From the NCBI GenBank assembly GCA_050084515.1, contig CM114271.1:4712001-4776000 (forward strand): 64,000 nucleotides of DNA, read 5' to 3'. Position 1 is the stretch's first letter. Every line of letters begins with the position of its first letter. Below are positions 4,914 to 50,364 of the stretch, piece after piece. Under the pieces are notes generated by a model. That model did no database searches. It was not told the DNA's origin and was given only the letters and a program-made list of their open reading frames with translations. The position numbers and the translations under genes are program-made. This DNA comes from Blasia pusilla (Eukaryota).

Positions 4914-7805
4914 TAAAAAATAATTTATCTCAGTAAATAGCTACCTTAACTTTTCTTAATCTCCTCCTACCGAAATCTGCGGATTGCCGGGGAAAAACTG
5001 CCCGGACCTTGGTCCGGTCCCGAAGGCGGTGGACTAGAACTCCTTGGAAGGCCGTTGCGACTTGACTTGGAAAGTAGGCGGTCGTCTGCCGAAGGACGCT
5101 CGCTACCACGAGTGTTGTTAGAGCTAAGTACGTGTCTTTATTAGGGTTGTTAATGACGTGTGGATGGCGAGAGAGACTGCTTCTTCTTTCTTTTCTTTGC
5201 GCTTCTTTACAGTACTTAGTACTTACTTACCAAACACGACACAAGGCACCGAACTGCAGTCGTACCGTGAAAATGACGTCCGCTTCAAGTTACGGAGGAC
5301 AACCGAAAACGTTAAAACGCGTTTGCGAATCATCATGAGCAACTAATCACTGTTGTCGATACCACGTGGACACTGCTGCGGCAAGCAGGAGTTTCAACGT
5401 ATGACTGTAGGAATATCCTCCGAGACTTTCGGTGTTAAGGATTTTAAGGGTCGGGGGGGGGAGGGTACTGTGCGGGAGAGGTAGTCGTCTTTGGTGTATC
5501 TAAGCGGCTCTCATAAAAAGGGATTATGAGGAGGTTTACATAAAGAATTATTTTTATTTACCAATAAATAAGCGTCGGAAAGGTATCTCAATTCTATGAA
5601 CACTGACTTATCTTGCCTACTTTTATGCTTGCTTTTGGGTTTATTAATATTTTGCTTTTAATGCAGCTGCAATATTTGATTACGGGTTACGATTTATTAG
5701 CCCTCATAGGAAACGCATAATCCTTCCCACAATGTTTGCCTGGGAGATGGAATTAAGGCCCTTAAGTAGATCTCAAGTTTGAAGTTTAGAATGATTGGAG
5801 CAGAGCACATGGGGAAACTTTAAAATTTCCCTTAATTAGTAGATAATAAATAATCAAGGGAGTAAAATTTATTGTTCGGGATGCTCTAAAAAGGTTTTTA
5901 ATATCTGCGCGGTAATAAATATGTTTCTTAGTAGCACCTTACCTTTTTTTATATATTAACTAATTTCTCGAGCAGAAATTTGTTAGTGATTCACTTTTAA
6001 ATGATCTTTTAAATCCAAGAAGTCATAGCATGAACCTTAAAGTAGCATTAATTGAGTAAAAGAAAATTTGTGTTTCTCTTATCTACATTAGAGAAAAACA
6101 TAATCCCATAACACCTCATAGACTCAAGAATTAAAAAGATAAGACAAACAAGTCGGTGAATTTTTAAAATGTGAGTAGATTCCTATTACCAAAATTTATT
6201 TTTTAAATAAAATAAATATAATTATAGACCCCATCATGAAAAGTGAATTCAAATGTTTTAATATAATTAATAGAATTATAGACCTCGTCATAAAAAGTGA
6301 ACTCAAGCCTTTGTTAAGGATGAAGAATAGTTCGCATTTGTACTGTCTATGTCGCTTTTTGGCCGGTTGTGGTTTTGGGATACTTGACTTTTTTAATTCC
6401 CCTCTTTTGTTTTCTCTTCTGGATTTTCTATCATATACATTTATTGAAGTCCGTCATTTCTTATTTTTTTAGAGGACTAGGGTCGGCGGAGCGATTCTTT
6501 GGAACCCTATATTTGAGTGTACTTCCGATGGGTTTTCCATCACTCGTTTTTTTCGAAGTGCATCTTTGTTTATCACTCCTCTTGTGTTTCATGGCCACGA
6601 AAAACCCTTCCACATTTTGATTATGACTAAACGAAATTACAACGTCATAACTCTTACAAACATACGTATTGATACGAAAGACGCACGTCTCTCCTACACA
6701 TAAAACGACCAAACATTGTTGCAGTTTGTTCATTCTCCTCTAATCTCGGATTTCGTAGCAAAATGAATATATTCACAGATAATCTCCTAAGAAATATTGA
6801 CGACAAAATGCGCTCCAGGTGAAGACTGTACATATTATTATTTCTGGCACTCATAAAATACACTAACCTTTGCTAATCTATCCAACAACCCTAAATACTA
6901 GCAAAGCTCGAAGCGAACGTATAACGTATGTGTGTGGAGGCAGCCCCTTTATTTTCTTTATCCAAAGTAGAGAAGAAGAGTAGCGAGTTCCCGTATATTC
7001 AGCAGTTACTGGGACTAGAAATAAATGAAAGCGTCGAATCCGATGAGCACTCGGAGTTACTCACTAGAGGACCTCACGACCGCTTTTACGCGAAATGGGC
7101 AGGTGACCTAAATAATCATAACACTTTTGGGCTCAATTATATATGGCGTTATTTGGCTCTCCCATATTACTATTAAGACCGTGCACGAAAAGTAGAAGCA
7201 TCTTCTAAGGGTTCGTGGAATATGTCATATATAGGAGTTTCATTTGATTTATCGTTTATGAGGAAATATAATGATTTTTTTATATTTGTAGATATGATAT
7301 TCTTTTTATTTTATTATAACTTCATTATATCAAAAGTTCCAGTTTATGATATTTCATGCATTTTATGACATATGCTATGCTATTGTAAACTGAATGAAAA
7401 ATGTTTCTCATTGGATTGAATTTTTTCTCTCAAGGTTTTTAATGTCATGAAATTCCTACTTGAAATTACTTTAACTTTGCGATTGGAAGTGCAATATCAA
7501 CTTTTAACATTTTCATATTCTTTATGTATCAATTCAGTGTAAGTCGCCTTGTATAACTATTGCTAATACTAAATTGTGCACGTGCGTCGCTTGGGGCTAG
7601 ATGAAACATTCCAAATCTCGAGAGAGGAGGACTCGTCTCTTTTCATACCTTCCCTCTCGAAAAGATGCGTTTTTATTCCTTCCTTATTCACTTATTTCTC
7701 CTCATCACACATCCACAAAACTTATTCTTAGTCTCTACACTTTTCTTACCTCTACTCTCTAAATCTCTAAGGGAATGGAAAAATCCTTCCTCTTCCCCTC
7801 CCTCC

Positions 7806-12624: not shown

Positions 12625-15597
12625 TTTTTTTTCAAAATAAATATATCCACTTTATTATAAAATAAACCTCAAAAGAGGACACAGAAAGATAATAACAACT
12701 CAAAAGAGGAGTCAAAAAATGCATAAAAGAATGCAAAAAGAAAATGGTAACAAGCCAACACAAACACTGGCTCAACGAGCTACACGATTGATAGCCTGAA
12801 AAAAATATTACAAGAACACGAGTGGTTGGTCAGACTTGAATGGACGACGAGGCGAGCGACCCTCCACCACCTCCGCACGAGGTATCAATGCCAAGGCTTG
12901 TGCACGTTGGAAGGCCACTGAGATACATTGCCGAAAATAAGTAGTAACTACCGAGAGAGAAGGACTACGGGAAGGGGCAAGGTGATGATTCTCGAGGGAG
13001 TGGTGAGCACATGTTTTCAAGAAAGTATCAAAAGACACATGTAAATGACCGAATACTTCCACTGCAAAAGGAATAAATCCATCAGTCGCATGTCTCACAA
13101 CATAACTTAACTCCTTGATTCTTGCTGCAGCTCCGGCCGCCAAACCTTTGGTATGTGCGGCTCGATACACCAAGTCAGAACTTGTTGGATCAGCAATCAC
13201 CATATCACCTAGTGTCTGGAATCCACCTCGAGACATATCAAGATCTACTCTCCGACGAGAGGTTGCTTGTGTGGTTGAAGGTAGGACATGGAGTTGCTCT
13301 TGCCCAACGGTGTATCCTACAGTACGAGCCACCGATGCTACCGCCTTTCTAACGACATCATGTGTGGCCGTTCGTTCTCCATCATGTGCACATCGGAGAA
13401 TATGGATACCCTTGGCATCAATGGGATCCCCGCATACACAATTCGGCACACCTAAGAGTGAAGAATAGGGAAGTCCAAGACGTAACCGCAAAGCTGTCGA
13501 GAATATACTTTGAGGAAGATAAAATGGAAGAATAAGAGGATTTGCAGTAAGCCACGCCCCCGCTCTAGTACCCGCACATGAACGTAGACGAGCTCAATTA
13601 GCGTTAGAGGATGCCTCGGAGAGAATGCTGGAAAAGTTGATTTGATGCAGATTCTCGGAGATATGCTCTTGAAGTTGATCAAACCCTTCCGTAATCAGTT
13701 GACTGAAAGGGGATAGAATTTCTTGTGTAGCAAGAGGAAGAAGAGCTCGTGTAGATCTCAGTTTTTGTTGAAATAACAAGTCCCCCTCCTCTACATGGGC
13801 AATATGATCCATCAAGATAGATGTATCTCCTTGGAGAAACCTTGAAACCTTGAAGCCATAATCGGTGCTACCAACACCCAACTCCCCAAAAAGGCTGCGA
13901 GAGCATAAGCGACTGTGGAGGACAGTCCCACCCCTCCAAAAGAAATAGGCAAGATAGCTTGTCGTGAAGCAAAGACCCCATCCTCTCCCTCAAAGGTATT
14001 CGGGCCAAGAAGTTGACCAAAAGTTGTCAAGATAGAAGCGTCAAAAGAGGCCAACCGATGTAAGAACCTTGAAGTCGGAGGACAAGTGCGAAGAAGGTAG
14101 GAAGGACGTCGTAGAAAAAATTGGGAGAGAATCCCATAAGCCACTTGGGGATCCCCTAGATGAGGTAACAAATAAAGCCATTCCACGTCTTTCAAAAGGG
14201 CCTCATCCAAGAACTTTGAGACATAGTCGATGAAGCCAATTGGGACCCCAAGAACTCTAACCCCTTCAATGTAGATGGGAAAATCAAGATTAGGTGGGGT
14301 GAATGTTGAGGGAAGGCATGAAGGAGACCATACTCCATATTTACTAGGTTGGACTTTAAGGTTTAAGAAAGAGAGTCGCTCCACGAAATGGGTATAAGCA
14401 AGAACCACTTCAGAAGGAGGACCTATAATGTGAGTGTCATCAGCAATAGAAGGGAAAAGACAAGATGGAAATGCTTGCGCTGATGCTCGAAGGGCACGAA
14501 AATGGGCAATGGCAATCAAGAGTGAAGAAAATCCCATGCACCACAGCCTCACAACCTCTAGGAGTTGCCACTCCAAATTGATGAGGAAATAAGTGGGCAC
14601 TAAAGTGAGGACGAAATTGCAAGCATAGGGATCGACTAACCAAGCGGTATAAAACCTCTCCAATAGCCAAAGAGCGCACATCTGAAGGAGGCTTATCCAA
14701 AGCCAACAAATGACAAACCTCCAAGAGCCTAGAGATAGAGAATGGGAGATGACCGGCCGTCATATGTGCACACACCATATAGAGAGAGACAAAGCCACTT
14801 GTTGAATCTGCTGGGATAAAGCAATCGTAGAGATGCTCAAAAACCATCCCTGATAGCCCACTTGCTGATAAGCGAGGAGTATGCAGAAAAGCCCTTGTGA
14901 AACCTCCAAATCAAGCTCCAAGTCAAGGTCCGTTGTATAGTCTTCTACAAAAGGTGGAGCATCGCCACTTGAAGGAGGATGAAGAGATTCTAAGAGAGCC
15001 ACTGTTTCCGCACTTGGAACCGCCGGAGAAAGAGGACCCAATGCTCGAGCTGCATGTGAAAACTCACCAACCTGCCCCAAAAGTAGACTTCGTTGAAGGC
15101 GTTGTTGTATTGAAGGCCTACCATGATTGGCATGTTGAGTAGGATGAGCCGCAACTAAGGCCTTTGCTCGAAGTACATGCTCATTTTGAAGATTCTCCCA
15201 ATCCCCAGACATAAAGCGTTGAATACCTGTGGAGGTTTCACGATGACCTGTTGCACCATCCCTTGGAGGGAGGACTAAAATCCATTATGGGAAGAGTAAT
15301 TGGAGATACCAAGCATTGATATCTGTGGGGTCACGTGCTAACCTTTCTAATGGGAAAAGCAAAGCTTGTTGGGTGATGGGGCGAAAAGCAATAGGAATGC
15401 GAGTGTAGAATCTAGGACGAGGAAGACTTGGATGGAAAGAGCGAAGGAGATCAATTTGGCTTAACTAGGTCCAAAAAGTTATTGTGGGGAGTGCAGTAGG
15501 AGGTGGTATCAGGTTAGGGATTGAAGGCCCATGCATGGATCGACAATACCACTGATGTCTTTTGATCCCATTAGGAGCAAACTCCTTACCACAAGGT
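12625..15597 (-). mobile_element. CRE-like non-LTR retrotransposon, 3' part (RT plus restriction-like endonuclease), decayed
   Basis: RT motifs DVRSLAIGEVLYRL, HQFGVATPRGCEAVVH, IADDTHIIG, LGVPIG, LPISFGGVGL. Zn knuckle and REL endonuclease CVCG..HILRC..RTATHD..RVD..D..K...FIPFAVEVFG (12808-13491). The central RT motifs are deleted near 14520. Short A-tail near 12625. Confidence 0.85.
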
Positions 15598-16112
15598 TGT
15601 CACGACTGTTAGGATAAATCGGTGGGATCTAGCAAAGCGTCTTCACGAGTAGTGGAGGACAGGCCCAGGAGGTCAAGGATGACCTGTTGAGGCCCCAGGA
15701 AACCTGAGAGAGCAGGTTTCCCCTTCGTTTCAGCTCATTTGGAGCCATATAGAGAAACTTACTATTTCAGGTAAATTTCTATATTGAGGATAATTAAATT
15801 TCCACTTTGGGAAGTGGCCCTCGACCCGCTACAGTAGGTCAAGAGCCAAGGAGGTGACTTGCGAGCATAGATTACCGTTGAGAGGGCTTGGGAGAGGGAA
15901 GGGGGTATACCTCCAAGAGAGGGAGCTTGAGAGCTCATTCTCTCTTTGTTAAACCTCTTGGCATAAGGCGGCGGAACTATGGTCCCTTGTCTTGTGAGTG
16001 TAACCCAAGCCTCTCATTAGGAGAGTGGGTTTGGTTTCACATGAGAGAGAGTGCACACATTTGAGAGCTATGGTGTGAGATGATGTAGAGAGATATTGGA
16101 TCTTACTTTACA
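15598..16112 (+). repeat. Terminal repeat segment A1 (about 515 bp)
   Basis: Direct repeat of 25310-25826; begins tgtcacgactgttagg and ends cttactttaca. Confidence 0.92.
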
Positions 16113-17822
16113 AAGACAGAAAGAGAGAATGAGAGAATGAGAGAGTGAGAGATCTTCATGGGGGAGCTCGCTAATCACTTGTTGTTTTTTCAGGTTGGGG
16201 ACCGTGTTCCCCATTCAGCGGCTCATGGGAGTGCTCACCGGAGCAAGGGCTCCTTTGATTGTTCTTTGCATTTGCCGATTTTTCGTGTGGAAGAGTGACG
16301 CGCGGAAGCGCTGCCCAATTTCTGATAGAGATTGATTATGGGGGTGGGTTGCCCCATGCCAATGCTCTTGGGAGCACCATGTAGCTTGCTGATTTGTATT
16401 TTTCCAGGTTTTACATTTTCGTTGAGAGAAATCAGCGCGGAAGCGCTGCCAAATTTTGTGTAGGAGAAAGAGACATTGGGCTTTACGACAGTCCCCATCA
16501 ATTTTTACTGGAATGTTTGGTTCTAAATATTTTTGACATTGTCGTAGATCGTGAAGTTGTGCACGCTGTGCAACAAACAATGCGCAATTTGGATTTGCGA
16601 GCAAAAAGTTATGGTCAATCTTGAAAATTTTCCATTGCTAGGCGATTTTTAGGGTTAAATTGTTCAAATCCGTAAACCAGCCGGCGTCGCCGTCATAGTC
16701 ACAATCAATGGTCCGCCGTTGATGGTCAATCGTCACCATCACCATCAATCATCAACCGTCACCGTCAACAGTCCACGGTCCATTGTCCACCCTTTGGTTG
16801 CCATTGCCGTCGTTACGGAGTGGAGGGTCTTCCATGACGTTCGTTGATTCTCTGACTTGCGTCGCCACTACGTACTTTATTTTGGCCGCCGCCGTCATCG
16901 TTGTTTCATCATCAACCAGTGATGGCAGATGACCTCCGCTTATGGTGTTTGAGTTTTGATTTCATACTGCTATGTTGTGATTGGTAGCCGCTCGACGACG
17001 ATCGAGTACCGTGCCGTGACGCCCGTATCCGCAACGCGCCGCCGATTGCCGCGCCGTGCCGCTCGTGGCCGCACTGCACCGTCTCGATCGCGGAGCCGCA
17101 CCGTCATTTTGGAGAAGAGTGTGGGTTTATTTTTGATTGAGGAGGGTATGCCGCGGAGTGCCACATCCCACCATCGAGGTCCGTGCCGTTCGTAGTCGTT
17201 CCGTGCCGCCTGCAACGCCGCACCGTTCTGTTGGAACCGCACTGTCTATCGAGGATTTTTGAGCAGCGTCAGTACATGAGGAGTATGACTTGCTGATTGG
17301 AGGAGTTATCTCCATGACCGAGTTAGGTTCGAGATTTGCAGTTGCTGAGGAGCGACATCGACATGTGTTCAGGTTACCCATTCTGGTCCTTTACCCTGCA
17401 CGTGTGAGGGATTTTGGGATTTGGGTAGTTTATTTGGGGATATTGGGTGTGTGGATGCTGAGAGCATCATTTATATATGTGGTTTAGGGGACATAGACCT
17501 GTGTGGGATGTCCGGAGTTGAGGGTAGGTTGTCGATGAGATGGTAGCCAGGTCGATTTGCCGCACCACGCCGCGTGTTGCCGCACGTTACACGTCTTGGG
17601 GAGGGAGAGTGTAGATCGAGTGCCACATGTTTGGGATGAGTGATTGAGGGATTATTCACGAGGTTGAGAGTGATCGTATGAGAGGGCACAAGGGTCATCA
17701 CGGAGTACGTTCAGGACTTTGAGAGGCGAGGTGGTGAACCCGAGAGTAGCTCTAGAGGTTTTACGCGGAGTGGCGCGAGGTTCCGAGGGTCTCCACGTGA
17801 GGGACCACCTCGACCTCCTTCT

Positions 17823-18960
17823 GTGTCATCGTCAGACAAGGGGGAGGGTGTAGAGGAGTTTGTGAGCACATCGCCACACATTATGAGTGGTCCTACCAGT
17901 TGGGTGTACGAGATGGACGACCGGGGTAGAGGACCACATAGGTTTTCAGGTGCAGTAGGCACGATTGAGTTGCACGATTTCATAGCCGATTTTAGGAGTT
18001 GGTGCGACTCCCAGCGGGCCAGGAACTCTAGAGAGTTCAACCCGTTTACAACATGGAACGGTATGTTCCAGCATTTAGAGGGGGCGCCCATGGACGATTA
18101 CCATGAGTTCTCTCAGAGATATGCACGTGAGATCGAGGCGTGGAGGCTCTACTATGACCCACATTATGTGTCATGGACGGAGCTGTTCCCAGATGAGGAG
18201 GAGGAGTCAGGAGAGGCTACTTCCTCTTCCACTAGTGACATTTTAGGAGGGGTCACTCGCACGGGAGCAGTTGCACCGTCTCGTCGGGTTCGTCCCAAGT
18301 TCAACCCTGTGGTTGAGTTCTTTGATGAGTTGAGGGCGAGCTACCAGGGGATACGGACGGAGAAGTTGCGGAGCATCCATGACTTCTAGAGGCGCCCAGG
18401 TGAGAGTTTTCATGAGGCTTACACTCGCTTGTGCCGGTTGATCAACGTTACTCAGGGGTGACAGAGGCTTAGGCTATCCAGTCATGGTACGCGATGCTGG
18501 ACCGGACCCTGCGGACACGGGTCTGGGAGGGGGTGCTTCTTATGAACACCTCCCCTACGTTGAGAGATGCTTTTAGGACCGCCAAGAACATTGAGCGCAA
18601 CATGGCGGAGGAGAGCGTAGCCACCATGGGTACTAGGCGAGAGCAGTCGCGATTGTCTGCACCACCTGTGCAGCAACGTGGACTCCGAGATAGGTCGATT
18701 GTGGCACCACCAGCTGAAGGAGAATACCGGGAGGTCGTGCCACAGAGACCTACGCCTTTACATGTGGCTCAGTAGCAGCCGCCTACTATTACTTGTTGGT
18801 CATGTGGTGGAGCCCATCATCAACGCGATTGCACTCGTCAGGGTCATGGACGTGTGCCTTAGCATGGAGGAGGAGATGGTGCTGCACCAGGAGGTTATCA
18901 GTGTCACTATTGTCAGAGGTATGGTCATACACGCGCCAGGTGTTTCAATTTACATCCTAA
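17823..18960 (+). pseudogene. gag with two CCHC zinc knuckles
   Basis: ORFs 17823-18389 and 18494-18775, then CWSCGGAHHQRDC (about 18795) and CHYCQRYGHTRARC (about 18902). Interrupted by stops and frameshifts. Confidence 0.85.
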
Positions 18961-19878
18961 GTTACGTCCGGACCGAGGGCCAGAGAGGGCACCAGAGCGA
19001 GTAGCCGGTCTGGGTGGGTCTAGAGATCGTGCACCATGTAGTCTCGTTGGGGGATGAGGAGCTAGAGTTTCCCGATAGGGTGGTGGAGCTGCCCATGGAG
19101 GAGGTAGTGTACCACCATCTAGATGCGCCGAGGGAGACTCCGGACGTGAGGCTGGGATGGCTGCTCAATACAAAAGCTACATGAGCAGATTTCCGCTATG
19201 GCATTGAGGTTACCCGATGCCGGATCCGTGACATCGACATCATATGGAGCAGCCAGAGATCTGGAGGATCCTGGTTGGATGTGCGGGGTTGCCCAGATGG
19301 AGGCAGCCAAAGTTGTGATGCGTGGAGCAGCTGCAAAGTTGGATCCACAGCGAGGGGAAGCCATGAAATAGACGAGGCTTCCTCAATCTTTCACGTTGTC
19401 CGAGGTGATGAGGATCCCATCGATGGGTCCTGAACAGAGTTCATGGAGAGTTGGTGATGTTGTTGGTATGCAGGCACGGAGGGCGATGAGAGAAGCGAGT
19501 ACAACAACTCCTATTGTTGATGCTCATGAGGGGCATGTGTTGAGCACGTTGTTGGGGGTGGCCACTGTTGTGTACCGCACTCTTTTATTTTCTACTTCCA
19601 ATGTTATGATGTTGGGGGATACGCCCGCCGAGGCTTTTCGGCTGGCCGCCTCACTATGTGATCACTGTGGCGGAGTTGGAGTTCCTGCATCACGTTCAGA
19701 GGTGATTGCAGAGGAGGTGACGGACCTGCCCTTGGAGCGGATGCTCGGGCCGTCCACGTGAGATTCATGGCAGGCTGTGGCTGCTAGGATGGCGGAGATG
19801 CCCGCTAGATCCGCGATAGAGCGTGCCATGGCTTCTCCTGGTGTTGTGTTGCTGGATAACTGAGGAGAGGTCTTTCAG

Positions 19879-20290
19879 TTGGTGAGTCTCAGAGGTAGAG
19901 CTTTTAGTCCGCAGCGTGCCCTGTTGGATTCTGGAGCGCAACCCCTGATGTTGGGGAAAGCGTCATTCAGAGGATTGGGCTTGACGAGAGCTGATGTGGA
20001 GTGTCGTCCATTCCAAATACAGACATCCTTGGATGGAGTGAGTACCACACAATATATCACCCGATAGGAGGTCATGGTGAGGATTCGCCCGGGACATCCT
20101 ACAGATGAGTCCGTGGTGCGAGCCAAGGCGATAGTGACTGATGCAGAGTCCTACGACGTCTTGGTTGGTGGAGCAGTGTTATACTCGATGGGGTTTTCCC
20201 TAGATTACTAGGAGGAGTCAGCGTCCTACAGACCAAGATGGCAGTAAGGTGATGGGCGCCTTAGCTCATTACCCGTTCGATTCACAGGTG
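19879..20290 (+). pseudogene. retropepsin aspartic protease domain
   Basis: RALLDSGAQPLMLG active-site motif and downstream YDVLVGGAVL. Confidence 0.85.
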
Positions 20291-20641
20291 CAGTGATCGA
20301 GCAACGGCCAAGAGAGAGATGGCGACCTTAGTAGCATTTAGCAGTTCCATCACTTACCCTAGTGATTTGATTGAGGGATATGTCCATGCAGAGGATACTC
20401 CCGTTCCCAACATTTCTATGGAGAGGAGTGTTATGGTAGCCGCATCATTCTGTGGAGGAGAGGTGCCGCTGTGGGGTCGACTGAGGAGCTTCGACGATTG
20501 GCAGATGAGCACGTGCAAACCGCGTGGAGCGAGGCGTTTGCACTGGAGCGTGATAGGTCAGAGGAACCCGAGGTAGCAGGGAGTGCTACGATGACACCCT
20601 TGGATACCACACCCATTGTGTGGTGTACCCTGGAGGAGGGT

Positions 20642-21580
20642 ATTCGAGTGTTAGATCTCTTTGGAGGGATTAGCACCGGGTTAGTTGTTGTTTTGCAGGC
20701 ACGAGTGCGAGTACTGCAGTACCTGTATGTGGAGAGTGATGATGTTGCGAGGCGCGTCTCACTACGACATGTGGCGCAGTTATGCCTACGTTTTCATGAC
20801 TTATTGTCTGCGTCCGCAGTACAGGGGTACCAGAGTTCCCTACCGAGGGATATTTTGTTGCTGGGGCGCAGGACTTAGAGAGGGTAGGGACCATTGATTT
20901 GGTCATTTCCGGTTGGCCATGTCAGGGCCAATCGAGTGCTGGACAAGGCAACGGGTTGGCTGACACTCGGTCCAGGTTGTTTTGGGAGATGTTGAGGGTC
21001 TTACGGCAGTTGCAGGAGCACCAGTCTTGTTCTCCAACCTACATTCTGGAGAACGTGCCGATCTTAGGAGACTCCAGGTCATGGGTGGTCACAAGTGCTC
21101 ATCAGGTGCGTGCTTCGATCGGCCCAGCAGTGTTCTTGGATGCGGCGAGTGTAGGTTCTAGAGCCCATCGCCCGCGTCTATGGTGGATCAACTTGGTGCC
21201 CCATGCGGTCTTACGGAGGGCATATGCGAGAGTGGAGCGCCCCTCCCATTTGTTAGTGGATTCCATTCTGGATCCAAGTCGTCGCTTACAAGCAGTGAGG
21301 CACGATGATCGACCATCGTTGACTGTGGTCAACAGGATGGGCAGGCCGCAGGCAGCCTTTCCCACGTTTGTGAGTTTTCCCGCTTCCTATACATACAAGG
21401 AGGCCGGTCCTGGCTTGGTTTGGGATGACTAGGTTCAGCGGTTGGTGGAGACCAATGTCAACAAGAGAGAGAGAGCGATGGGATTTCCCACAGGAGTGAT
21501 GGCAATACCGTTAGTGTCATAGGCATCACAACGCCACGTCTTGGGTCAGGCGATAGACCTGAACTGCTTGACATGGATCC
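20642..21580 (+). pseudogene. DNMT3-like C5 cytosine DNA methyltransferase domain within pol (copy 1)
   Basis: Motif I VLDLFGGISTG, II YVESD, IV IDLVISGWPCQG, VI ILENV, VIII RAHRPRLWWINL, IX/X RERAMGFP...VLGQAIDLN. One frameshift near 20865 and stops in the C-terminal part. Confidence 0.92.
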
Positions 21581-22160
21581 TAGCTTGGGAGTGGCTGAGC
21601 AGCGTTGTATGAGATTGCAACAGATCACAACGGTTGCGTTGGTGAGCCCTATGCCTACTGAGACGGTGGAGGCAGTGGCTGGGGGCGAGACCCGAGGAGA
21701 TCTACACACCATGGGAGATCGGGAGAGACACCCTTGGACTTCTTGGGATGTTTTGCAGGTACGCCAGGAGATGATAGCCACAACATCCAACGTGGTTTAG
21801 AGCACTGCATGTGGAGGAGATCAGAGTTTGCAGTTGGCTGCAGGAGAGCAGTCGAGTATTGTTGTTCGAGACGGGTTTGCACCATAGCAACCAACGATAC
21901 CCGCGCTGGAGAGTCCTACCGTACTCACAATGGAGACTTGGGTGCCAGATATGGGCCCTAAGTTGACAGGAGGAGAGCGGCGACGAATACATCAGTTCCT
22001 CAGGAGTTATAGGAGCTGGTTTGCATTTAACATGGAGGATTTGGGTACGCTGAAGGGATCGGGGATCCACATTGAGTTATCGAGTGATACGCCGATCTTC
22101 CGACGACCCTACAGGTATAGTGATATGGAGAGGGCTCTGATTTAGAGTAGGAGCCAAGAC

Positions 22161-23009
22161 TTGGTTGGAGCAGGACTAGTGGAGATGTTGCATGGAGAGT
22201 ATGCATTTGCCACTATCATGCCCACCAAGAAGGATGTGCATGGCAACAAGACGGATAGGCGGATGTGTGGGGATTACCGACCTATCAATCGGGAGACGAA
22301 GTCCGATAGGTATGCCATGCCCACCCCTGAGGAGATCTTTGATACGAATGGTCACGCAAAGGTCTTCAGTTCATTGGATTTGCGAGCCGGATACCATCAA
22401 CAGCCTATCAGATTGGAGGACAGGCAGAAGACGGCATTTTGGGGCATCGATCCTCACGGGAAGGATTGTTTGTACGAGTGGCGGTTCTTACCATTTGGGT
22501 TAAAGAACGCCATGGTTGAGTTTCAGAGCATCATAGATAGGATCTCGGCTGGTCTGGATTTTGCTAGGTATTATATTGATGACATCGTAGTCTTTAGCGC
22601 CACCGTTGAGGAGCATGAGCGACATGTAGAGGAGGTGTTTCGACGATTGCAAATACATGGACTGAAGCTACATCCAGGCGAGTGCAAGTTCTTCTACGAT
22701 CGGATTGAGTACTTGGGTCATACGATATACCCAAGGGGCCTTGGTGTTCAGCAGACGAAGGTAGAGGCTATCTCACGTATTCCACGCCCTACAGATGTGA
22801 GCCGTGTTCGCGCATTCGTAGGATTGGCAAACTTCTATCGGCGGTACGTCAAGGGATTCTATTCGATTGCGAAGCCGTTGACCTTGCTGACCAAGGTGGA
22901 TCATGAGTGGCAATGGGGGGATGAGCAAGAGCGAGCATTTCAATTGCTCAAGGACAGGTTGACGTCTGCACCCATCTTGAGGAGATCGATCAGGGGGCGT
23001 CCTTTCTAG
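22161..23009 (+). pseudogene. Gypsy reverse transcriptase (copy 1)
   Basis: RMCGDYRPIN, LDLRAGYHQ, LPFGLKNA, YIDDIVVFS, YLGH. Confidence 0.97.
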
Positions 23010-23381
23010 TTGCACACAAATTGGAGCATGTTGGGGCTTGGAGCGGTGCTCACCCAACATGATGATGAGGGTAGAGAGTTTGTAGTGGCTTACGCTAGCC
23101 GCTCGAACAACGCTGCAGAGGCGAAGTACAGATCGCATGAGGGTGAGTGCTTGGCTGCAGTGTGGGCTGTCGCGCATTTTAGGTGTTACTTATTCGGCAA
23201 CCCCTTTACCATCATCACTGATCATCAACCACTGAAGTGGTTGATGGAGTCCGAAAAGCTTACAGGGAAGCTTGCGAGATGGGCTCTGTTGTTGCAAGAG
23301 TATGATTTTCAGGTGGTACATAGACCTAGGACGCTCAACGAGGATGCAGATGGGTTGAGTCGTAACCCATGCCCGAGTTAG
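23010..23381 (+). pseudogene. RNase H (copy 1)
   Basis: GLGAVLTQ, VAYASRS, ECLAAVWAV, TDHQPLKWL, DADGLSR. Confidence 0.95.
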
Positions 23382-23689
23382 CGAGATGCGACTGGAGCTC
23401 GATGGCGTGGAGAGAGTGAAGAGAGTCAGTGCCAGGATGGCACGCGTCAGCCTATTTAGGCATGTTGGCTAAGGAGAGCCAAAGTGTGCAGACTTCGATG
23501 GTGAGGTCTAGTGGCGAGTCCTTGGATCCCGAGGCTAGTGAGGAGACGACAAGTGGCCGAGATATTCATGATGATGGAGTAGTCTTGGAGTACCTTCGTA
23601 CTGGCAGCATTGCGAGCACCGTGGGTGCTAGAGAGCGGAATCGGATCCTATAGCGGGCCAGACGGTTCCGTTGGGAGGGGACACATATT

Positions 23690-24800
23690 TTGAGGGTTTG
23701 GGAGGATGGCAGAGTACGCGTAGTGCCACATCCTTCGCAGAGAGCACGACTAGTGCAGCATGCCCACGAGGAGTTGGGTCACTTTGGGGTGAAGCGGACG
23801 TACAACTTGCTCCAGATTCAGTATTGGTGGCGAGGCATGCAGACTGACGTTCAGCAGTTTGTTGCCAGGTGCATGGTGTGTGATTGGGTCTGAGCATCGT
23901 TCAATGCTCCGACTCCACAGTTGCATCCATTACCGATCATGGGCTTAGGGTATAGAGGGAGTTTGGATTTTGCAGGACCTTTGCCTTTGACGGAGCGTCA
24001 CAGTCGTTATGTATTGGTGATGGTCCAGCACTTCTCGAAGTGGATTGAGTTGGTTGCATTGCCTGACAAAGTGAGTGAGGGAATAGCTTATGCCTTCCTT
24101 GACAGAGTGTTGAGTCATTATGGCGCACCGGATGAGGTGTTGACAGACCAGGGTACCGAGTTTCGCGGTGAGTTTCAGGCCTTGTGTGATCAAGCACTGA
24201 TCGACCATCGTACTACTTCGCGAGATCATCCTAAGGCAGATGGACTAGCGGAGCGGGTTGTGCAGACGGTGAAGAGAGGAATACGCAAGTATGGCTTGCA
24301 GAGAGGTCACCTAGGAGATTGGGACCTTCAATTTCCGTGGTTGGCGATGGGATACAGATTCAGCATGCAGGCATCCTTAGCGTCTTTTTCACCATACTTG
24401 CTATTTTATGGCCGAGAGCCAGATTTACCTGTGGCCATTCGTCGAGATGTTGGTGAGGTGTTGGACCTTGATGACCCAGATGTATGGATGCGAGCATGTT
24501 CTCATAGGGTTGATTTGTTTTGGAGAGTGATGCCCATGGCGTTCGAGAACTTGGCGATTGCGCAGCATCAGGATACATTGAGGTATATGACTATTCGGGG
24601 TGGTGGTTATTGACCAACTATCCGGAGGTTTCATCATGGAGATTATGTCTACTTGCAGCAGACGGCACCAAAAATGTTGGATGTCACTGAAGGGCGCACT
24701 ATCTTGAGAGTGTGTGACGTTTTGCCATCCGGTGTTCTCTTGCTGGAGGGACGCGATGGTATGGTCTGGAAGGACCATGTGCGTAATTTTGCGCCATGTC
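23690..24800 (+). pseudogene. DDE integrase (copy 1)
   Basis: HHCC motif HEELGH...CMVC; core LDFAGP, TDQGTEF, GLAERVVQT. Confidence 0.95.
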
Positions 24801-24856
24801 ACCTTCCTAACATTGGTGGTACAGTAGATCCGAGCTTAGTAGTAGTTCCTTCACGC

Positions 24857-25003
24857 TTGCGTTGTATGTTGTATGGTTCCGCCCGTGGTGCGGCCACGAT
24901 GCTAGTCTGTGATGGATTTTTGAGAGCTTGGCATATGGCATGTCTGACGCCACCTCTCACTAGGGTTCCTCGGGGACGATGGATGTGTCCCATATGTACA
25001 TAG
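24857..25003 (+). pseudogene. C-terminal PHD finger fused to integrase (copy 1)
   Basis: CMLYG...MLVCDGF...WHMACLTPPL..VPRGRWMCPIC fits C4HC3 spacing with two Cys lost. Copy 2 keeps the second Cys (CMLC). Confidence 0.88.
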
Positions 25004-25176
25004 AGGAGATACTAGGTAGGTTTTGATTCTGACTTTTTTTGTGATATGGATGACATGAAGGCGACTAACGATGGGGCCGCATGAGCACCCGACCTTTCTG
25101 CTCTTAGCGTCCTAGAGATGTATGTCGTGGTAGATAGGGATAGAGGGCTATCTGGAGTTAGAGGTACCTAACCACC

Positions 25177-25190
25177 AGCTAGGGGGGCGA
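25177..25190 (+). promoter_or_regulatory. polypurine-tract-like plus-strand priming site
   Basis: agctaggggggcga lies immediately before repeat B1 and is conserved before B at about 50351 and 51202. Confidence 0.7.
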
Positions 25191-25191
25191 T

Positions 25192-25307
25192 TGGAAATAT
25201 TTTGGTACTTCTCGCCTCTGTGTATGGATGCCATGAGTAAGCATGGGATCGTGTGTGCGTTCGATGACAGCGATGTATGTTGTGTAGCAATATGTATGTG
25301 TACGACA
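25192..25307 (+). repeat. Repeat segment B1
   Basis: tggaaatattttggtacttctcgcc...tacgaca; direct repeat of 25827-25956; followed by a 2-bp spacer ac and then A2. Confidence 0.92.
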
Positions 25308-25309
25308 AC

Positions 25310-25826
25310 TGTCATGACTGTTAGGATAGATCGGTGGGATCTAGCAGAGCGTCTTCACGAGTAGTGGAGGACATACCCAAGAGATCGAAGATGACCTGCT
25401 GAGGCCCCGAGAAATCTGAGAGAGCAGAGGTTTCCCCTTCATTTCGGCTCATTTGGAGCCATATAGAGAAACTTACTATTTCACGTAAGTTTCCGTATTA
25501 GGGATAGTTGACTTTCCACATTGGGAAGTGGCCCTTGACTCGCTACAGCAAGTCAAGAGCCAAGGAGATGACCTGCTAACATAGGTTACCGTTGAGAGGG
25601 CTTGGGAGAGGGAAGGGGGTATACCTCCAAGAGAGGGAGCTTGAGAGCTCATTCTCCCTTTGTTGAACCTCTTGGCATAAGGCGGCGGAGCTATGGTCCC
25701 TTGCCTTGTGAGTATAACCCAAGCCTCTCATTAGGAGAGTGGGTTTGGTTTGACATGATAGAGAGTGCACACCTTTGAGAGCTATGGTGTGAGATGGTGT
25801 AGACAGAGATTGCATCTTATTTTAAA
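25310..25826 (+). repeat. Repeat segment A2
   Basis: Direct repeat of 15598-16112. Confidence 0.92.
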
Positions 25827-25956
25827 TGGAGATATTTTGGTACTTCTCGCCTTTGTGTATGGATGCCATGAGTTAGCATGGGATTGCGTGTGTTTGTTTG
25901 TGTGTGTGTTCGATGACAGCGATGTATGTTGTGTAGCGATATGTATGCGCACGACA
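25827..25956 (+). repeat. Repeat segment B2 (right terminus of copy 1)
   Basis: Second copy of B ending gcacgaca, followed by TSD aggt. Confidence 0.92.
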
Positions 25957-26500
25957 AGGTATGCAACGAACCTTTGGTACAAATGGAGAAGTAGAAGGGT
26001 TACAAGGAGAGGTGAGATTGCAAGACGTGGTGATGGCCAACGATGAGGGGGTAAGTAGGTTGGGGCAAGAGGAGGAGGAAGAGGGGAGATTTTCGGGTAG
26101 AATAGATGGGATTTGGAAGCAAGGGCATAGATGAGATATGTGGGGATAGCAAAGTAGAAGGATTCGAAAATAATGGATCAAGATTATGCTCAATAGGACA
26201 AGGCGAAGAAGGGAGAAGAGGAGAATCCGGAAGAAATGTAGCGAGTGTAATGGACGTATTAGCATCTCGAGGAAAATGGCGAGATCTACGATGAGGAGAT
26301 GAACCATTGGGAGAGGTTACGGCTGTAGGAGGGCGTGTAAAACCAGATAAGCGAGTAGACGGAGAATCCAACTCCATCTCAATGACCGCTATGAGGGAAT
26401 GAGTTCGTAATGTTGGGCCCATTCCGTATCTAAAGATCCAGAAAGGCATGAGGAATCCCTTAAACCAATGGTAACCCGGTATCACTCTATAAGGAGAGCG
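25957..26500 (-). mobile_element. 5' part of the CRE-like non-LTR element split by copy 1
   Basis: Pro/Ser-rich ORF remnants. Joined across the TSD to 15597 it reads VRCIPCGKEFAPNGIKRHQWYC (zinc finger). The 5' limit is approximate. Confidence 0.8.
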
Positions 26501-32943: not shown

Positions 32944-35900
32944 TCATGAAGAGAGCTGTTCATCGTCAGCAAGATCAAGCAGCTTGGCTACGTCCCCTTC
33001 TATGTACCCTGTCAAGTATGCCACACAGAGTCTTCTCAGGAGTTGTTTTCGTGGATCCTTAGGCTCTGAGGATGAGAGTGTCACCAGTCTTTCCTTCATG
33101 GAAAGAAGTAGCCTTTGTGCTGTATCGACGCTGTCAGGCACTCCTGGTCCTGTGGCATTCTTCACAGGTGCAAATTCTTCTTCACGAACTACTTCCAGGA
33201 GTACCACCTGCGCAGACACAGCCAAGGGTTGGATTTTCCTTAAAATGACACATATGAAAGGACAAGAGACAATGGTAGATTTGAGTCAAGTGGGAGAGGA
33301 GCTGGGTCAGCACAAAAACTTTGGAGGGGAATGGATTTGAGGTGAATATCGAGGTGCCAGACAAGGAATTGCAAAGAATCAGTACCTTGTCAGGATCGGA
33401 AAACTTGAAGGCATCAAAAATGAAACGCTCCAATTTCACCCCATTAGGTTTCTCCGGAACCACTTGTTTCCATTCGCCATCTTCCATTTCGACATGTGGA
33501 ATTCGCTTCAAGGCTGTGTGGAACTTGAGCTCATTACTTCCATCTCCTAGCTTCTTGAGAAAGTCCACCGAGAAAATATTCATACAGGTGTGGCCCGCAC
33601 GAAACTTGAGTGCATTCTCCTTTGAGATTGAATCAAGACCTTCATGGCTTGCTAAACTACTCTCAGGTTCCCCAGAATCTTCCACTGCTGATCTGAGGGT
33701 ATCTGGGATCTCACTGTACTCCAGAACACCATACCGTAACCTGCCTTCACCTTCATCAACCTTTGTATCTTCAGCACTCCCTACAATGTCATGGCTCCTA
33801 CACACCACACCCATGGCTTCCTCTGGTGATATCTTGGTGACAACTTTCACTCCTATGTCGGCATCGCACTCCTTTGTATACCCAAAGAAAACTGGATCCG
33901 CAACTCTTACAAGGGCATTGTCCACAGCAAACACCTGCAAGGGAAATTGAGATTCATAATTGAAAAAAGAAGGGCCATAGGTTGGATTGGTAAAAAGGGA
34001 AGTACCTGACACTCACAAATCGGGTAATTCTAAGCAATCCAAAAAGGTTTTCATTGCATGATAAGACTCTAGACGTGAAAGTGAGAGATGCACTGAAAGC
34101 ACTCTCAATAGGGATACTTGCGGCTTCTGTACGTATATGACTCGTCTATCTTAAGTGAAAGTACCCTCATGTGGCCTACTTCACAATCCATTACCCTCTG
34201 TAATTGTCAGTGATGGCCTCTTGTTAGGTCATAAAGCTAACATTCGCCTTCCTAGTTTGGAGATTCAAGTTTGATCAGGTCTTTGATGAGATCAATGCAG
34301 GGCCAAAACAAAGAAATGGGAAGGAGTGCATGAATGTCTTTCCTAATAACCTCCTGCAGGGTTTTGACTAGCGTAAATGTAATAGGACACAGAAAACAGC
34401 ATCAAAAACAAGGCAAGCACAAGATCTTCCATGGCATACCGGAGCAGTGTTCTCCAGAACTTGTAATATCCTTGTGCCCAACAGAGTAAACCTCAATACT
34501 TTACAAAGTCATGGCACAACAAACCTCAAGCTAGGATGATGGGTATGACCCTCTGGCAACATATATTTAATGACTAATGGCCATTCTCCCTAACTATTTC
34601 ATGTTGTGCACATGACTTGCACTGTCCATACTTATGAAGAAGAAAAGAAGGCTTGAGGAAACCCAGGAGATATGTTCCTGAAGAATTGAATCTTCTTGGA
34701 TAAATAAATGATAATGAGGATAGTATCATACCTGTAAGTAATCTACACCAAGATCAATTAGACGGTCCAACATTCCTTGCCCATGCAGTGCACTGAAGAG
34801 ACCCCCATTTCCATTTGGTGCCCGTGCCACCTTCCAAGGAGTCTCCATAAGGATGCGATGTTGACCATTTCTTTTCTCAAGACCGATGCATGGCATGCTT
34901 TCTTGCATAAGAAACCATACCTGGCAAATTAGAACCATGGACATCATCAGAACAACTGCAATCTATTGGCCTACATGTGACTGGGCTACAAAGAGCTGGC
35001 CCAAAACCAGGTCATGCCCAAATACACACTTTCCAAGGAACAATCCATTCAGCAAACGATGGGAAAAGAAAGAAACAACCGGTAGAAAATAGGCAAAAGG
35101 AGAAAAAGCTGACCACAGCCAAAAGAATATTGGTGGAGAACTAGTAACTTTGGTGAAACAGAGACTTTTTAGATGGACACAAGCCAAAGAAGTACAAACC
35201 TGGTCTTCTTTGAGACCAAAAAATTTGTTTTCTGCAAAAAATGATCTGGTAGATTTATCCGTGGCATCACTTGTCATGACAATCCAGGGGATATGTGGCC
35301 TTGTTCCGGAACCCGTCACCTGAAAAACTCAAGTATGGCAGGCTTATCACTGTGACGACTGGATCATGTTAAAGAGCATATTTTAGTCACACTCAGTTCT
35401 TGTAAACTAATAGTTGAAACAGACCATACAATAAATTCCTCAGTCAACTTAGAAGAGAACTCTGGCAGGGCATTGGGTGAAGGAACAAACCAGTACGGCC
35501 AACTCTTGAATGATAAGCAAACGCTCTGCTTGTATCTCAAATATGGACTTGCCTTCGGGAAGGCCCAAGTCAAGCATGCCTTTCACCACAAGTGGAGTGG
35601 TGTGTCCCAGTCGTGTGCTTTGTCCTCCTGCCAGCACCACAACACCCACTCTCCCATCAGCTACTAATTGTAGCCCTTCCTGCCACCATCGTACCACATC
35701 CACATCATCTCCTCCAGTCTCCTGTTCCTCCAAAGACCTAGGATTGCCTAACCAGGTGTCCAAATCTTGGCAGCTTACACGAGGGAAAGCTGAAGGTGGC
35801 TCTGGCCACACTGCATTTTCTTGTGGCCTGGGTGACAGCATACAAGGTTGGTCAAATTAACCTCTGACTTGCACTTGAAAACTATCTGTCACCTCTGAAT

Positions 35901-38900
35901 AAGGATGTGGCATATGGCCCACTGCGACTCATTACTCAAAAGCTATTTATGGAAAGCACACTTCTTTGCCCAGACTAACTTTACATCAGAGAAACGAAGG
36001 GATCCAAGGAGGACTTATTATTGGGCTGAAAGACTCACCTTACCGATGAGTTTGAAAGGGGTAAGGCATCTTGCAATGCCAGCTGAAATAATGCAAAGTC
36101 CATGGTCAGAAGTTGCTCCATCAACTCTTGTTGTTGAGCTTCAGAGCCAGTAGATAATCCATCAAGAATGTGTGTTTGTCCGATTGCTGTCAATTTTTTC
36201 TTCAAACCTGCAAACCTCTCCTTCAGTTTCCGCTTTTCTTTGACTTCCTGCTTCATCACAAAAGTGTACAATGGCACTTGTGAGTGTTACTGGACAGGTC
36301 CAGAACCTGAGAATGTCATACAAGCACTATCGATGGCAGAGATGAGATGAGATGAGATGAGACGAGGCCATTCTGAGAGCTTGCAGTGGCAAATAGACAA
36401 GCATTCACTGGTGTAGAAAACAAAGCCAGATGAACCATTGTGCAAAACTTTTTGAGGACAATCATATCCATGGAGACAGTCAGTGTCCACCTGCTTGCGT
36501 TTGGCCTTCACATCTTTGCCATCACCTGGGGCGTTCAGCTCAAGAAGTCCTGCTGGTGGGGTAATCTCCACCCGCCTCATATGCTTGTCAACAATAGGAA
36601 CAATGTCTTTAACAAATGGTATCCAGACCTTGCGATCGCTGCTGCCACCAGCTGAGGCTGTCAGGCTCACTTGCAGGAGGTCAGTATCACCACCGGTATT
36701 GAACACATCTAGCACCACACCAATTTCCTGCCCTGTTTCCTGCATACAGAAATCTTGCATCAGAAGACTCCTTCCCTTAATGCAGTGGACCAAGTGCATC
36801 ATCTATGGGCAAGAGACGAGTTGCTTTCAGATGAAAAAACATCAAAATTCGCATATTTCAAGAGAAAGTAGCACAACCCAATTCTCTGTGAACTTCCATT
36901 TATATTGCACATTCAAACATTTTTACTTGAAAACGGCCCAGTACCTGAAGGGCCACTGACATGCCAACAAGATCTGGAATGTAGAATTCGTCCTCATCTA
37001 AAGAAGGTCTATCTGTCACAAGCATGGTTGATCCCACTAGCTCACTGGCCTGCACAAACTCAAGTGCATGGTATTAAGGTCTTGCTGCCATATTGAGGTT
37101 GCACTTGTGGCAAAGACACATGGATCATAGCTTGCAGTCATGCAGAGAGTCAATCATATCATCCTTAAGCTGGAAAATAGATCAAATCTACTATAAGTCA
37201 ACAGTAAAGGGGTATAAAAACGCCTACAATTTAAGGACAGAAAAAATTCCCTCAAGTAAACTTTACTCCCACATGTTGACATCCAGCTTAAATAAGACCC
37301 AAAAAATAAAAGTATACATGGACACTGGACAGTGGACACTGGACAACCTTCTCTAGAGTGTCGAATCCATTTAAAGTGATGAGCCATGAAGGACGTCTGC
37401 CGGATCGTTCCCTGCCCTCCACAAGCTCGACACGCTGGAGAACAGGTTTACCCATGGAGCGACTACGTATCCATCTTGTTCCTGGCTGGTCAATCACAGC
37501 AACCTTTGATCAATTCAAGCACTCCTTGTAAAATATCATGCTTACTTAAGTTCAGAACAAGAGCTTAGCTAGCCAACGACCTCTTCTCCCATTTTACATT
37601 CAACATGTGACTAAACATGACAAGTAGATATACTTGCTATCCAACAGGCACTCCAGCATTAGACTGGACTAGCTTTTAAGACTCATGAGATTAATTCAGT
37701 CTTGTAAGAGATCTAGCTCAGTCTTCCAATTTTCCTTCTCGAATGCACAATTTAGTTATTTCTGAACATAAGTAGTACGATGAGCCACAATCAACTCAGG
37801 AGAAGCACCCGCTCACACCTTCTCGAATCGTTCTTCAGGGAAATCTGTCAGGGAATGCACGTGGAGCTCCCCATTTACTCCATGAGTATCAGCAATGTAC
37901 CCCACTTCCACGAAGTCTCCAGCATCTGGAATCTCGTCTTCCAACAGAGGACTCAGATTACCTTCAGAAACAGACAAGCACAAGACATTATCACCCAAAT
38001 TTTGGTGGAGCTTGAGAACACTCATGACAACACTGTAGTTCTCACACAGGTGTGTGACGTGACGGCCAGAGACCACCACCTGGAACTGGACCTGAGGACC
38101 TCCTAGGTGGTCTTCGTATGGGCTCTCCCTGCTCAGGAAACTCCACAGGTGTTCCAGATTCAGCAGGAGACACAGAATCTCATGCCCATTCCAATACACC
38201 AACCATCATCTGATGCTTTGCACTGTCAAACTAAAAAAAGTTCAAGGGACCTCTCTCCTCTGAGCCTCTCAGTGTGCACCCAACCCTGCCTCTAGCACCA
38301 TCCAACAGAGCGCGGGGTATCTGGTAGCCAACCTACAACAGGCACTACTTCATGAGTAGTATATATCTCCATCTGATTCACAACACAATGAGTACCATCC
38401 TATGCAGAAATTGCTAGGCTGGTGACACCAGAGCCATACATAACGTTCAGTAGCCTAAATTCACTGCCTACAGCTGCTGCACTGGTAAGTAACACATGTA
38501 ACACATGATTTCAATATGGTCAGCACTCACATTATATGAGGGTGTCACTCATCCTCTCTCTCCTACTGTTCAAGCATTCGTGGATACCATAACCAAAGCA
38601 GTGGGCAAACGCTCACAGCAGAACAGCATGGAGGAAGCCATGAAAATGTCTGACCTCTCTCTCTTGACGGTATATCCCGAGAAGGCAGAACTGAATAAAT
38701 ATTTGCGGGGAACCCCTTGCTTGGGAACCTGGCTCAAGTTCAAGTTCAGAACGGGGGCAATCCCCTTGAACCATAAGAAAAGCAGGATGGGAACACAACT
38801 AAACTCTTGCGCCTTGTGTGACGATGGGGATGAAACCTCTAGTCATTACTTGGTCTCCTGCGCAAAATTCACATCTCACAGAGCAAGAGCATATGCTGAT

Positions 38901-48774: not shown

Positions 48775-48849
48775 ATCTGCGGACTGGCAACGTCGCTAGT
48801 GGGTGCTAGAGAGCGGGATCGGATCACAGCGAGCCAGATGGTTCCGGTG

Positions 48850-50180: not shown

Positions 50181-50364
50181 TAGGGTAGGTAGTTCTAGAT
50201 TCCGACTTGTGTCTGTGATATGGATGACAAGAAGGCGACTAACGATGGGGCCGCATGAGCACCCGGCCTTTTGGCTCTTAGCGTCCGAGAGATGTATGTC
50301 ATGGTAGGTAGGGATAGATGGCTATATAGAGTTAGAGGGACCTAACCACCAGCTAGGGGGCGAT

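Follow-up and report, generated by a model that had tools for sequence, protein, structure and literature searches.

A DNMT3-like methyltransferase domain in a probable Gypsy-DNMT3 retrotransposon family of Blasia pusilla

A 64,000-nucleotide stretch of Blasia pusilla DNA (assembly GCA_050084515.1, contig CM114271.1, positions 4,712,001 to 4,776,000; hereafter the window) carries two copies of a retrotransposon with a DNMT3-like C5 cytosine methyltransferase (DNMT) domain inside pol. We consider it highly probable that this is the methyltransferase domain of a Ty3/gypsy element of the 'Gypsy-DNMT3' kind, known in streptophytes (de Mendoza et al., 2018, PMC5890265). The element encodes, in one pol polyprotein, gag with a CCHC zinc knuckle, an aspartic protease, the DNMT3-type DNMT, reverse transcriptase (RT), RNase H, integrase and a PHD finger. 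The kind is known and the family in the window is a further member of it; both copies here are old, dead insertions, and the interest lies in the family.

A methyltransferase domain within a Gypsy pol

Seven C5 methyltransferase motifs had been reported in an initial annotation of the window, in order and in both copies, and the translations contain them. In copy 1 they read LDLFGGIS, YVESDD, SGWPCQG, ILENVP, RPRLWWINL, ERAMGFP and LGQAIDLN (the motif names used below, I, IV, VI, VIII, IX and X, are those of the standard C5 methyltransferase nomenclature). Copy 2, on the minus strand, has the motifs in the same positions and in canonical order, with both arginines of motif VIII replaced by histidine. 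The catalytic cysteine of motif IV and the ENV of motif VI are kept in both copies, as first claimed. The proposed search with PF00145 gave matches above the cut-off of 22 bits in each: E 1.3e-11 and 45 bits for open reading frame (ORF) 20800-21432 of copy 1, and E 2.2e-7 and 31.1 bits for copy 2, where in each copy the motif IV-VI piece alone reached the Pfam threshold and the other pieces matched no family. Both domains are pseudogenes, as had been proposed. That of copy 1 has one-base frame breaks at about 20862 and about 21580 and in-frame TAGs at 21430 and 21520; in that of copy 2, when the frame of copy 1 is projected onto it, there are five stops, together with an insertion of 4 bases and a deletion of one. 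Lesions are spread across the entire length of both elements.

The layout of copy 1, all on the plus strand, was established by tblastn with unbroken homologues, among them Marchantia P0053, and its parts were read from stop-to-stop ORFs between 17.7 and 25.0 kb, along which the frame shifts. A gag-like region (17928-18964, matching residues 9-354 of P0053 in two frames) contains a single frame break, several stops and, near 18902-18943, a CCHC zinc knuckle whose spacing was read from the ORF; Pfam returned no gag family in copy 1, all matches of the zinc-knuckle piece being below cut-off. The protease region follows at 19168-20474. Within it, an aspartic protease with the motif LLDSGAQ and with stops (19921-20283) aligned to residues 483-608 of Closterium P0075 (BLASTP E 1e-13), which overlap the Pfam protease match of that protein at 473-569; Pfam found no protease in the window piece nor in P0053. 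The DNMT domain, motifs I to X, occupies 20585-21600 (PF00145; 56-63% identity to P0053 residues 824-1195 by tblastn). It is followed by an RT-RNase H stretch at 21924-23441, with RT at 22233-22727 (PF00078, RVT_1, E 1.9e-24, residues 30-194 of ORF 22146-23009) and RNase H at 23010-23303 (PF17917, RT_RNaseH, E 3.4e-35), and by an integrase stretch starting at 23903, with the core at 23978-24232 (PF00665, rve, E 1.3e-11). The Gypsy-type order RT - RNase H - integrase is present (PF00078, PF17917/PF17919, PF00665). No chromodomain was found after the integrase by Pfam; its place at the C-terminus of pol is taken by a PHD finger (24890-24997, PF00628, E 1.1e-6), in which, on our reading of the translation, two zinc-binding cysteines are replaced in this copy. 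Pol probably has its natural end at a stop at 25001 that is common to both copies. Of the ten pieces of copy 1 scanned with Pfam, four gave no family at 0.01. The initial annotation had placed the domain between protease and RT, at 20642-21580 and, in copy 2, at 53360-54301: the placement agrees with tblastn and with the BLASTP match to P0075, and the coordinates are right to about 60 bases, judged by tblastn with an unbroken Marchantia homologue.

Copy 1 starts with TGTCA and ends with CGACA, and is flanked on both sides by (A)AGGT, a short target duplication of 4-5 bp (15593-15597 and 25956/7-25960) that marks its insertion. Its 5' long repeat, A1 (15598-16111), is 90.8% identical to its copy A2 (25310-25824), with a Kimura two-parameter distance (K2P) of 0.099. 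A shorter repeat of 117-130 bases, B, lies directly 5' of A2 (B1, 25192-25308) and again at the 3' end of the element (B2, 25827-25956), the two being 93% identical (K2P 0.074). The layout is A-internal-B-A-B, in which the extra B departs from the plain long terminal repeat (LTR) layout. A distant relative from a metagenome, locus L012 (5663-14983, with the order DNMT-RT-RNase H-integrase), shows the same layout and the same terminal letters, and has a target duplication of its own, (A)ATAA. In both copy 1 and L012, B1 is joined to A2 by three bases (AAC).

Copy 2 is rearranged. Its gag to RNase H part lies on the minus strand (51342-57414, 84-85% identical by blastn to copy 1 17378-23596) and includes the DNMT pseudogene at 53338-54350, located by PF00145 and by alignment to copy 1. 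The last 2.5 kb, with integrase, PHD finger (Pfam E 1.6e-7) and terminal repeats B-A-B, are inverted relative to the rest (48799-51347, plus strand, 85% identical to copy 1 23621-25961). After B2 of copy 2 stand the letters AAGGTA, identical to those after B2 of copy 1. Two further fragments of the same family were seen: one at 42796-44280 on the plus strand, with an A-like repeat start and some sequence from upstream of gag, and one at 47924-48775 on the minus strand, with an A repeat and downstream sequence, adjoining copy 2.

Affinity of the domain to DNMT3

We assessed affinity by ranking E-values against all solved chains, which is not a tree. With a single intact relative (P0003) as query, the ranking was DNMT3A (6e-12), DNMT3B (1.4e-9), the tobacco enzyme NtDRM (1.2e-8) and HaeIII (3.5e-4). 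A profile built from 12 family sequences gave DNMT3A at E 8.6e-26, aligned over residues 12-286, nearly the whole domain, followed by DNMT3C (6.8e-24), DNMT3B (9.3e-24), NtDRM (1.6e-16), M.HhaI (2e-12), AtDRM2 (3.5e-12) and the DNMT2/tRNA enzymes (2.6e-8 to 2.9e-8, DNMT2 itself 2.9e-8); DNMT1 was absent from its 57 solved-chain matches at E ≤0.01. The distance between the three DNMT3 enzymes (8.6e-26 to 9e-24) and DRM or M.HhaI upholds the label 'DNMT3-like' that the domain had been given from its motifs.

The motif order is collinear with DNMT3A residues 12-286 in one alignment, and hence not rearranged, unlike that of DRM. Canonical DNMT3A, 3B and 3C are the best-scoring solved relatives and have motifs I-X in the same order, although identity to them is low and the match rests on motifs. 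The family differs from them in being embedded in a retrotransposon polyprotein, in a longer stretch between motifs VIII and IX (about 88 residues against about 62 by our own count), and in having no PWWP or ADD companion domain, Pfam detecting neither in the window nor in those relatives that were scanned. This last difference does not define the whole DNMT3 clade, since protist and algal DNMT3s also lack these domains (Sarre et al., 2025, PMC12344493).

Relatives and two element architectures

A read-through of the window's domain matched 69 proteins, 46 of similar length and 23 longer. The 22 that carry an organism name are all from bryophytes and 48-70% identical to the window: Marchantia polymorpha (12), M. 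paleacea (1), Riccia sorocarpa (1), Calypogeia fissa (3) and Sphagnum species (5). Several have no break. Mp_4g09160 (1278 aa) starts with gag and continues through DNMT; in MARPO_0091s0058 and one Sphagnum fallax protein the DNMT is followed by RT and integrase, and a DNMT that continues into RT is seen in Marchantia P0055 and Sphagnum P0068. Because unbroken relatives carry the DNMT in one ORF with the other parts, the domain is part of pol and not a nested gene. One Marchantia and two Sphagnum polyproteins bear the UniRef name 'DNA (cytosine-5-)-methyltransferase', and 'DNMT3' gene counts in bryophyte genomes could, if our reading is true, be inflated by transposon copies. More distant relatives include one-ORF polyproteins such as P0072 (2188 aa), which holds CCHC, DNMT, RT, RNase H and integrase, many proteins of the zygnematophyte Closterium, and also proteins of the chlorophytes Scenedesmus and Monoraphidium.

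For a wider sample we searched representative proteins with a profile of 1146 positions. These include gag, protease and part of RT, so the totals returned (13,743, 2,307 and 538) are not DNMT-specific; the best 150 were used, most of which match at DNMT positions, and fetched proteins were rescored with a DNMT-only hidden Markov model. The domain is present in 282 of 286 fetched related proteins. Together with its presence in both window copies and a depth in sequencing contigs like that of gag (see below), this bears out the earlier claim that it is a family trait. Two positions were found. In 25 proteins the DNMT lies upstream of RT/RNase H, as in the window, and the named ones come from Marchantia, Sphagnum and Closterium; in 103 it lies between RNase H and integrase, the named ones being from Scenedesmus and Monoraphidium. 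The remaining DNMT proteins have DNMT and integrase only (22) or DNMT alone (132). A PHD finger after the integrase was found in precomputed annotations of most long hits, as in both window copies.

A quick IQ-TREE of 64 DNMT domains, with a midpoint root only, divides exactly by DNMT position (SH-aLRT 100 on both sides). Its rows comprised the two window read-throughs, every upstream-type domain of sufficient coverage (20), named and some chosen ones, and 25 drawn at random from the 98 downstream-type domains. The two copies of the window group as sisters (SH-aLRT 99), and the clade of 14 rows that contains them (98) also has Calypogeia, Sphagnum and Marchantia, a placement that lends indirect support to the suggestion, made from the sequence of the window, that the known host range extends to land plants. 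Within this bryophyte clade Sphagnum falls nearer to Marchantia than Calypogeia does, against host relationships, with poorly supported forks; moss and liverwort DNMT domains are 75-80% alike.

Among the 202 family domains covered to 85% or more, the catalytic cysteine is kept in 197, the E and N of motif VI in 200 and 191, and each arginine of motif VIII in 197. Over long evolutionary times the domain has clearly kept its catalytic residues, from green algae to bryophytes, and it goes together with a PHD finger on the integrase. Motif IV reads EC instead of PC in most downstream-type (chlorophyte) relatives, E being found at that position in 112 of the 202 domains. Relatives of the chlorophyte type include P0124, P0235, P0267 and locus L013; in L013, gag (2-1396) and pol (1400-7480) are parted by a single in-frame stop.

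Selection between the window copies

The two window copies differ at 11-17% of compared codon positions. We calculated dN/dS between them with the Nei-Gojobori method and obtained 0.26 for the DNMT (324 codons; bootstrap 0.19-0.37), a value not near 1. The other regions gave 0.29 (RT-RNase H), 0.34 (integrase), 0.29 (PHD region), 0.37 (gag) and 0.62 (protease region). The divergence of the copies points to purifying selection on the DNMT, like that on RT-RNase H, and the likeness of these two values suggests that through most of this divergence a functional DNMT was as necessary to the lineages as a functional RT.

Abundance and transcription of the family

DNA and RNA reads were compared with 17300-25200 (7.9 kb, in 30 bins) at a likeness of at least 80%. 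The DNA runs that best match the DNMT stretch come from one organism and contain at most one third of the sampled words; no RNA run was among the indexed matches. Two DNA runs gave 28,175 and 30,715 contig pieces, which cover all 30 bins; their summed depth over the DNMT, which is not a copy number, is like that over gag and about half of that over RT. The RNA evidence consists of two raw-read runs with the same species label (X22 and X23), which gave 6436 and 6229 reads and also cover all bins. In the DNMT bins, first mates on the minus strand are about 8 to more than 100 times commoner than on the plus strand, which in most stranded libraries means sense RNA across the DNMT. At the two frame breaks of copy 1 many RNA reads carry an extra base, at 20862 in 24 of 43 reads (X22) and 20 of 41 (X23), and at 21581 in 32 of 46 (X22) and 25 of 32 (X23); this extra base is what unbroken relatives require. 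The window copies belong to a large, highly repeated family that is still transcribed. Several air-metagenome runs (X7, X10, X11, X15) hold a small share of the DNMT-stretch words and are no evidence of anything.

Possible roles of the methyltransferase

That a transposon should encode a methylating enzyme is counter-intuitive, since cytosine methylation is the main host weapon against transposons. In the mechanism that we put forward, the DNMT would be made as part of Pol and hence lie beside RT in the particle, where the protease would free it in the presence of new double-stranded cDNA. The enzyme would then add de novo methylation to the element's own cDNA or to the newly inserted DNA, either ahead of integration or as it takes place; the new copy would arrive already with host-like methylation, and the PHD finger on the integrase would pick the chromatin for landing. 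Self-methylation of cDNA by the element-borne DNMT is a sensible possibility, which we hold with somewhat less than even confidence. The gain to the element may be protection of the cDNA from host defences, a host-like mark, or self-restraint. Every organism-named host is a green alga, a liverwort or a moss, groups that have a dominant haploid phase. Self-damping could pay in such hosts, and if the idea is true, a dominant haploid phase would be in keeping with self-silencing or self-targeting by which the element spares its host. There is experimental precedent for the activity: the DNMT3 domains of SymbioDIRS performed de novo CG methylation in yeast, and methylation of cDNA has been proposed for them (PMC5890265).

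Several points weigh against this picture of a constrained and working DNMT3 that methylates its own element. Both window copies are dead, and no action can come from them. Almost none of the RNA matches copy 1 closely (1 of 6436 and 2 of 6229 reads are at least 99% alike), so that the RNA must come from other family copies. The domain of KnitGypsy-Dnmt3, the Gypsy element of Klebsormidium nitens, gave no methylation in yeast, a result that its authors called inconclusive (PMC5890265). The ratio of observed to expected CpG in the element (0.69-0.79) is at least as high as elsewhere in the window (0.57-0.66); as there is no special depletion, it says nothing on self-methylation. As for the class of the domain, what the similarity ranking supports is a likeness to DNMT3, membership of the clade being no more than probable, and our tree covered domains of the retrotransposon family only. 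Among young copies, moreover, constraint is invisible: in five close metagenome relatives that carry 0-10 stops, DNMT dN/dS was 0.51-1.01 in all ten pairs, which we read as young dead copies drifting apart and count as no support.

A further point of this sort is that the two copies, with a dN/dS of 0.26-0.62 between them, have in-frame stops in common at 18773 (TAG/TAA), 20065 and 21430 (TAG/TAG). Three common stops exceed what we would roughly expect from parallel hits (well under one), and they fit poorly with both lineages having been autonomous. They may come from a common defective ancestor or from exchange between copies; alternatively, the common TAGs would be independent hits on methylated CAG or TGG codons. 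Most other family copies in the reads have C at 18773 (among the 40 listed of 2707 differences). Nine single-copy CAG-to-TAG differences were found between the copies, a frequency that would fit deamination at methylated CAG. Programmed read-through at 21430 is improbable, as this position is occupied by a sense codon in unbroken relatives.

An unlikely but serious alternative to cDNA methylation is that the domain acts on host chromatin, at the integration site or elsewhere, or serves as a DNMT3L-like partner that recruits host enzymes. The PHD finger, a chromatin reader in the same polyprotein, would suit such a role, as would the high copy number and sense transcription, and accidental methylation of the genome by enzymes of this sort has been discussed (PMC5890265). 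A dead partner like DNMT3L is at odds with catalytic residues kept in 191-200 of 202 domains, whereas a role on host chromatin and methylation of cDNA are indistinguishable by sequence alone.

It is improbable that the domain methylates RNA, as DNMT2 does tRNA, placing m5C on the genomic RNA of the element or on its primer and so aiding stability or packaging. RNA methylation was raised by de Mendoza et al. for a DNMT borne by a LINE, and the lack of DNA methylation by the Gypsy-borne domain in yeast would agree with it (PMC5890265). The family profile, in contrast, fits DNA enzymes far better, with DNMT3A at 8.6e-26 and the DNMT2/tRNA enzymes at 2.6e-8 to 2.9e-8. The region between motifs VIII and IX, where C5 DNA methyltransferases have their target-recognition domain, is also conserved within the family.

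Finally, the notion that the domain is foreign to the element (a chance capture, a nested fragment of a host DNMT3 or an assembly chimera), for which speaks only that both copies are broken and copy 2 rearranged, can be dismissed: the domain sits in the same place in both copies despite their divergence and in the unbroken one-ORF polyproteins of other organisms, which refute it, its dN/dS is low, and contig pieces in their thousands, as well as RNA reads, extend over it.

Comparison with known elements

The first reading of the window had pointed to retrotransposon-borne DNMTs in dinoflagellates and a charophyte alga, and the paper in question does report them (PMC5890265). The closest described element is KnitGypsy-Dnmt3. 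It resembles the window element in having a non-rearranged DNMT3-type domain inside the Pol ORF of an LTR Gypsy element, in a streptophyte host, and in its repeats, given in the legend of Fig. 4c as A-coding-B-A-B 'as in DIRS' with Gypsy domains (PMC5890265), an arrangement found here in copy 1, the 3' part of copy 2 and L012. Purifying selection on the domain may be a further likeness: dN/dS below 0.2 is reported for KnitGypsy-Dnmt3 (PMC5890265), and the values here are 0.26 between the window copies and 0.51-1.01 among the five young metagenome relatives. No Klebsormidium protein was among the named matches of the family searches, and since no search returned a Klebsormidium sequence the repeat layout is the strongest link between the two families. 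The window element differs in that its closest named relatives are from bryophytes and Closterium and not from Klebsormidium, and its copy number looks far higher than the 'fewer copies' described for K. nitens (PMC5890265).

Other elements are more distant. SymbioDIRS-Dnmt3 of the dinoflagellate Symbiodinium is a DIRS element with a tyrosine recombinase (PMC5890265), whereas the window element has a DDE integrase, a target duplication, a protease and a PHD finger. The chlorophyte Gypsy elements (Scenedesmus 'pol', Monoraphidium MNEG_11595) share a homologous DNMT, the Gypsy backbone and a PHD finger after the integrase; they differ in the order RT - RNase H - DNMT - integrase - PHD, in forming a separate clade of the DNMT tree (SH-aLRT 100) and in a motif IV that is mostly EC. 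We found no paper on elements of this order. Chromoviruses are Ty3/gypsy elements with a chromodomain after the integrase; they are alike in the fusion of a chromatin-reader module to the integrase C-terminus, and the window element differs in that its module is a PHD finger.

The published reports that we found name only Symbiodinium and Klebsormidium as hosts. A 2025 paper (PMC12344493) and a 2026 preprint (10.64898/2026.05.21.726589) still cite, in the relevant passages, 'streptophytes (Gypsy-DNMT3)' from 2018, and the text of the survey of plant LTR elements by Neumann et al. (2019) contains neither 'methyltransferase' nor 'PHD'. No bryophyte retrotransposon DNMT, coupling to a PHD finger or pair of architectures was reported in the literature searched, which left aside most subscription journals and the supplements; further streptophyte hosts may be listed in Supplementary Fig. 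13 of PMC5890265 and in the supplementary trees of PMC12344493.

Taken broadly, these observations lead us to a tentative proposal, rather doubtful as a whole, that Gypsy-DNMT3 is an ancient clade of the green lineage that joins a writer (the DNMT3-type domain) and a reader (the PHD finger) in two architectures, with a bryophyte family that is very high in copy number and transcribed in sense. In a host that resembles a land plant, a PHD-bearing Gypsy-DNMT3 seems to be both abundant and transcribed, and if some copies are intact, liverworts and mosses could owe part of their de novo methylation to a transposon-encoded DNMT3. With unbroken copies in Marchantia polymorpha, a transformable model, the gain of the element from its DNMT is directly testable.

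Other features of the window

Rfam gave no matches in the window. Three transposon-like ORFs lie outside the family described here: one at 2214-4463 (plus strand), hAT-like by eye; one at 12808-15284 (minus strand), by eye a LINE reverse transcriptase; and one at 38502-39224 (plus strand), with a weak zf-RVT match (5e-4). At 0.001 the Pfam scan of these three ORFs returned nothing. Two intron-split, host-like genes were also seen, both on the minus strand. The one at 33182-35856 has a nucleotidyl-transferase-like ORF (PF12804, 9e-4, below cut-off), and the one at 36287-38205 is RimM-like, with an N-terminal domain (PF01782, 1.1e-8) and a PRC barrel (PF24986, 8.7e-9).

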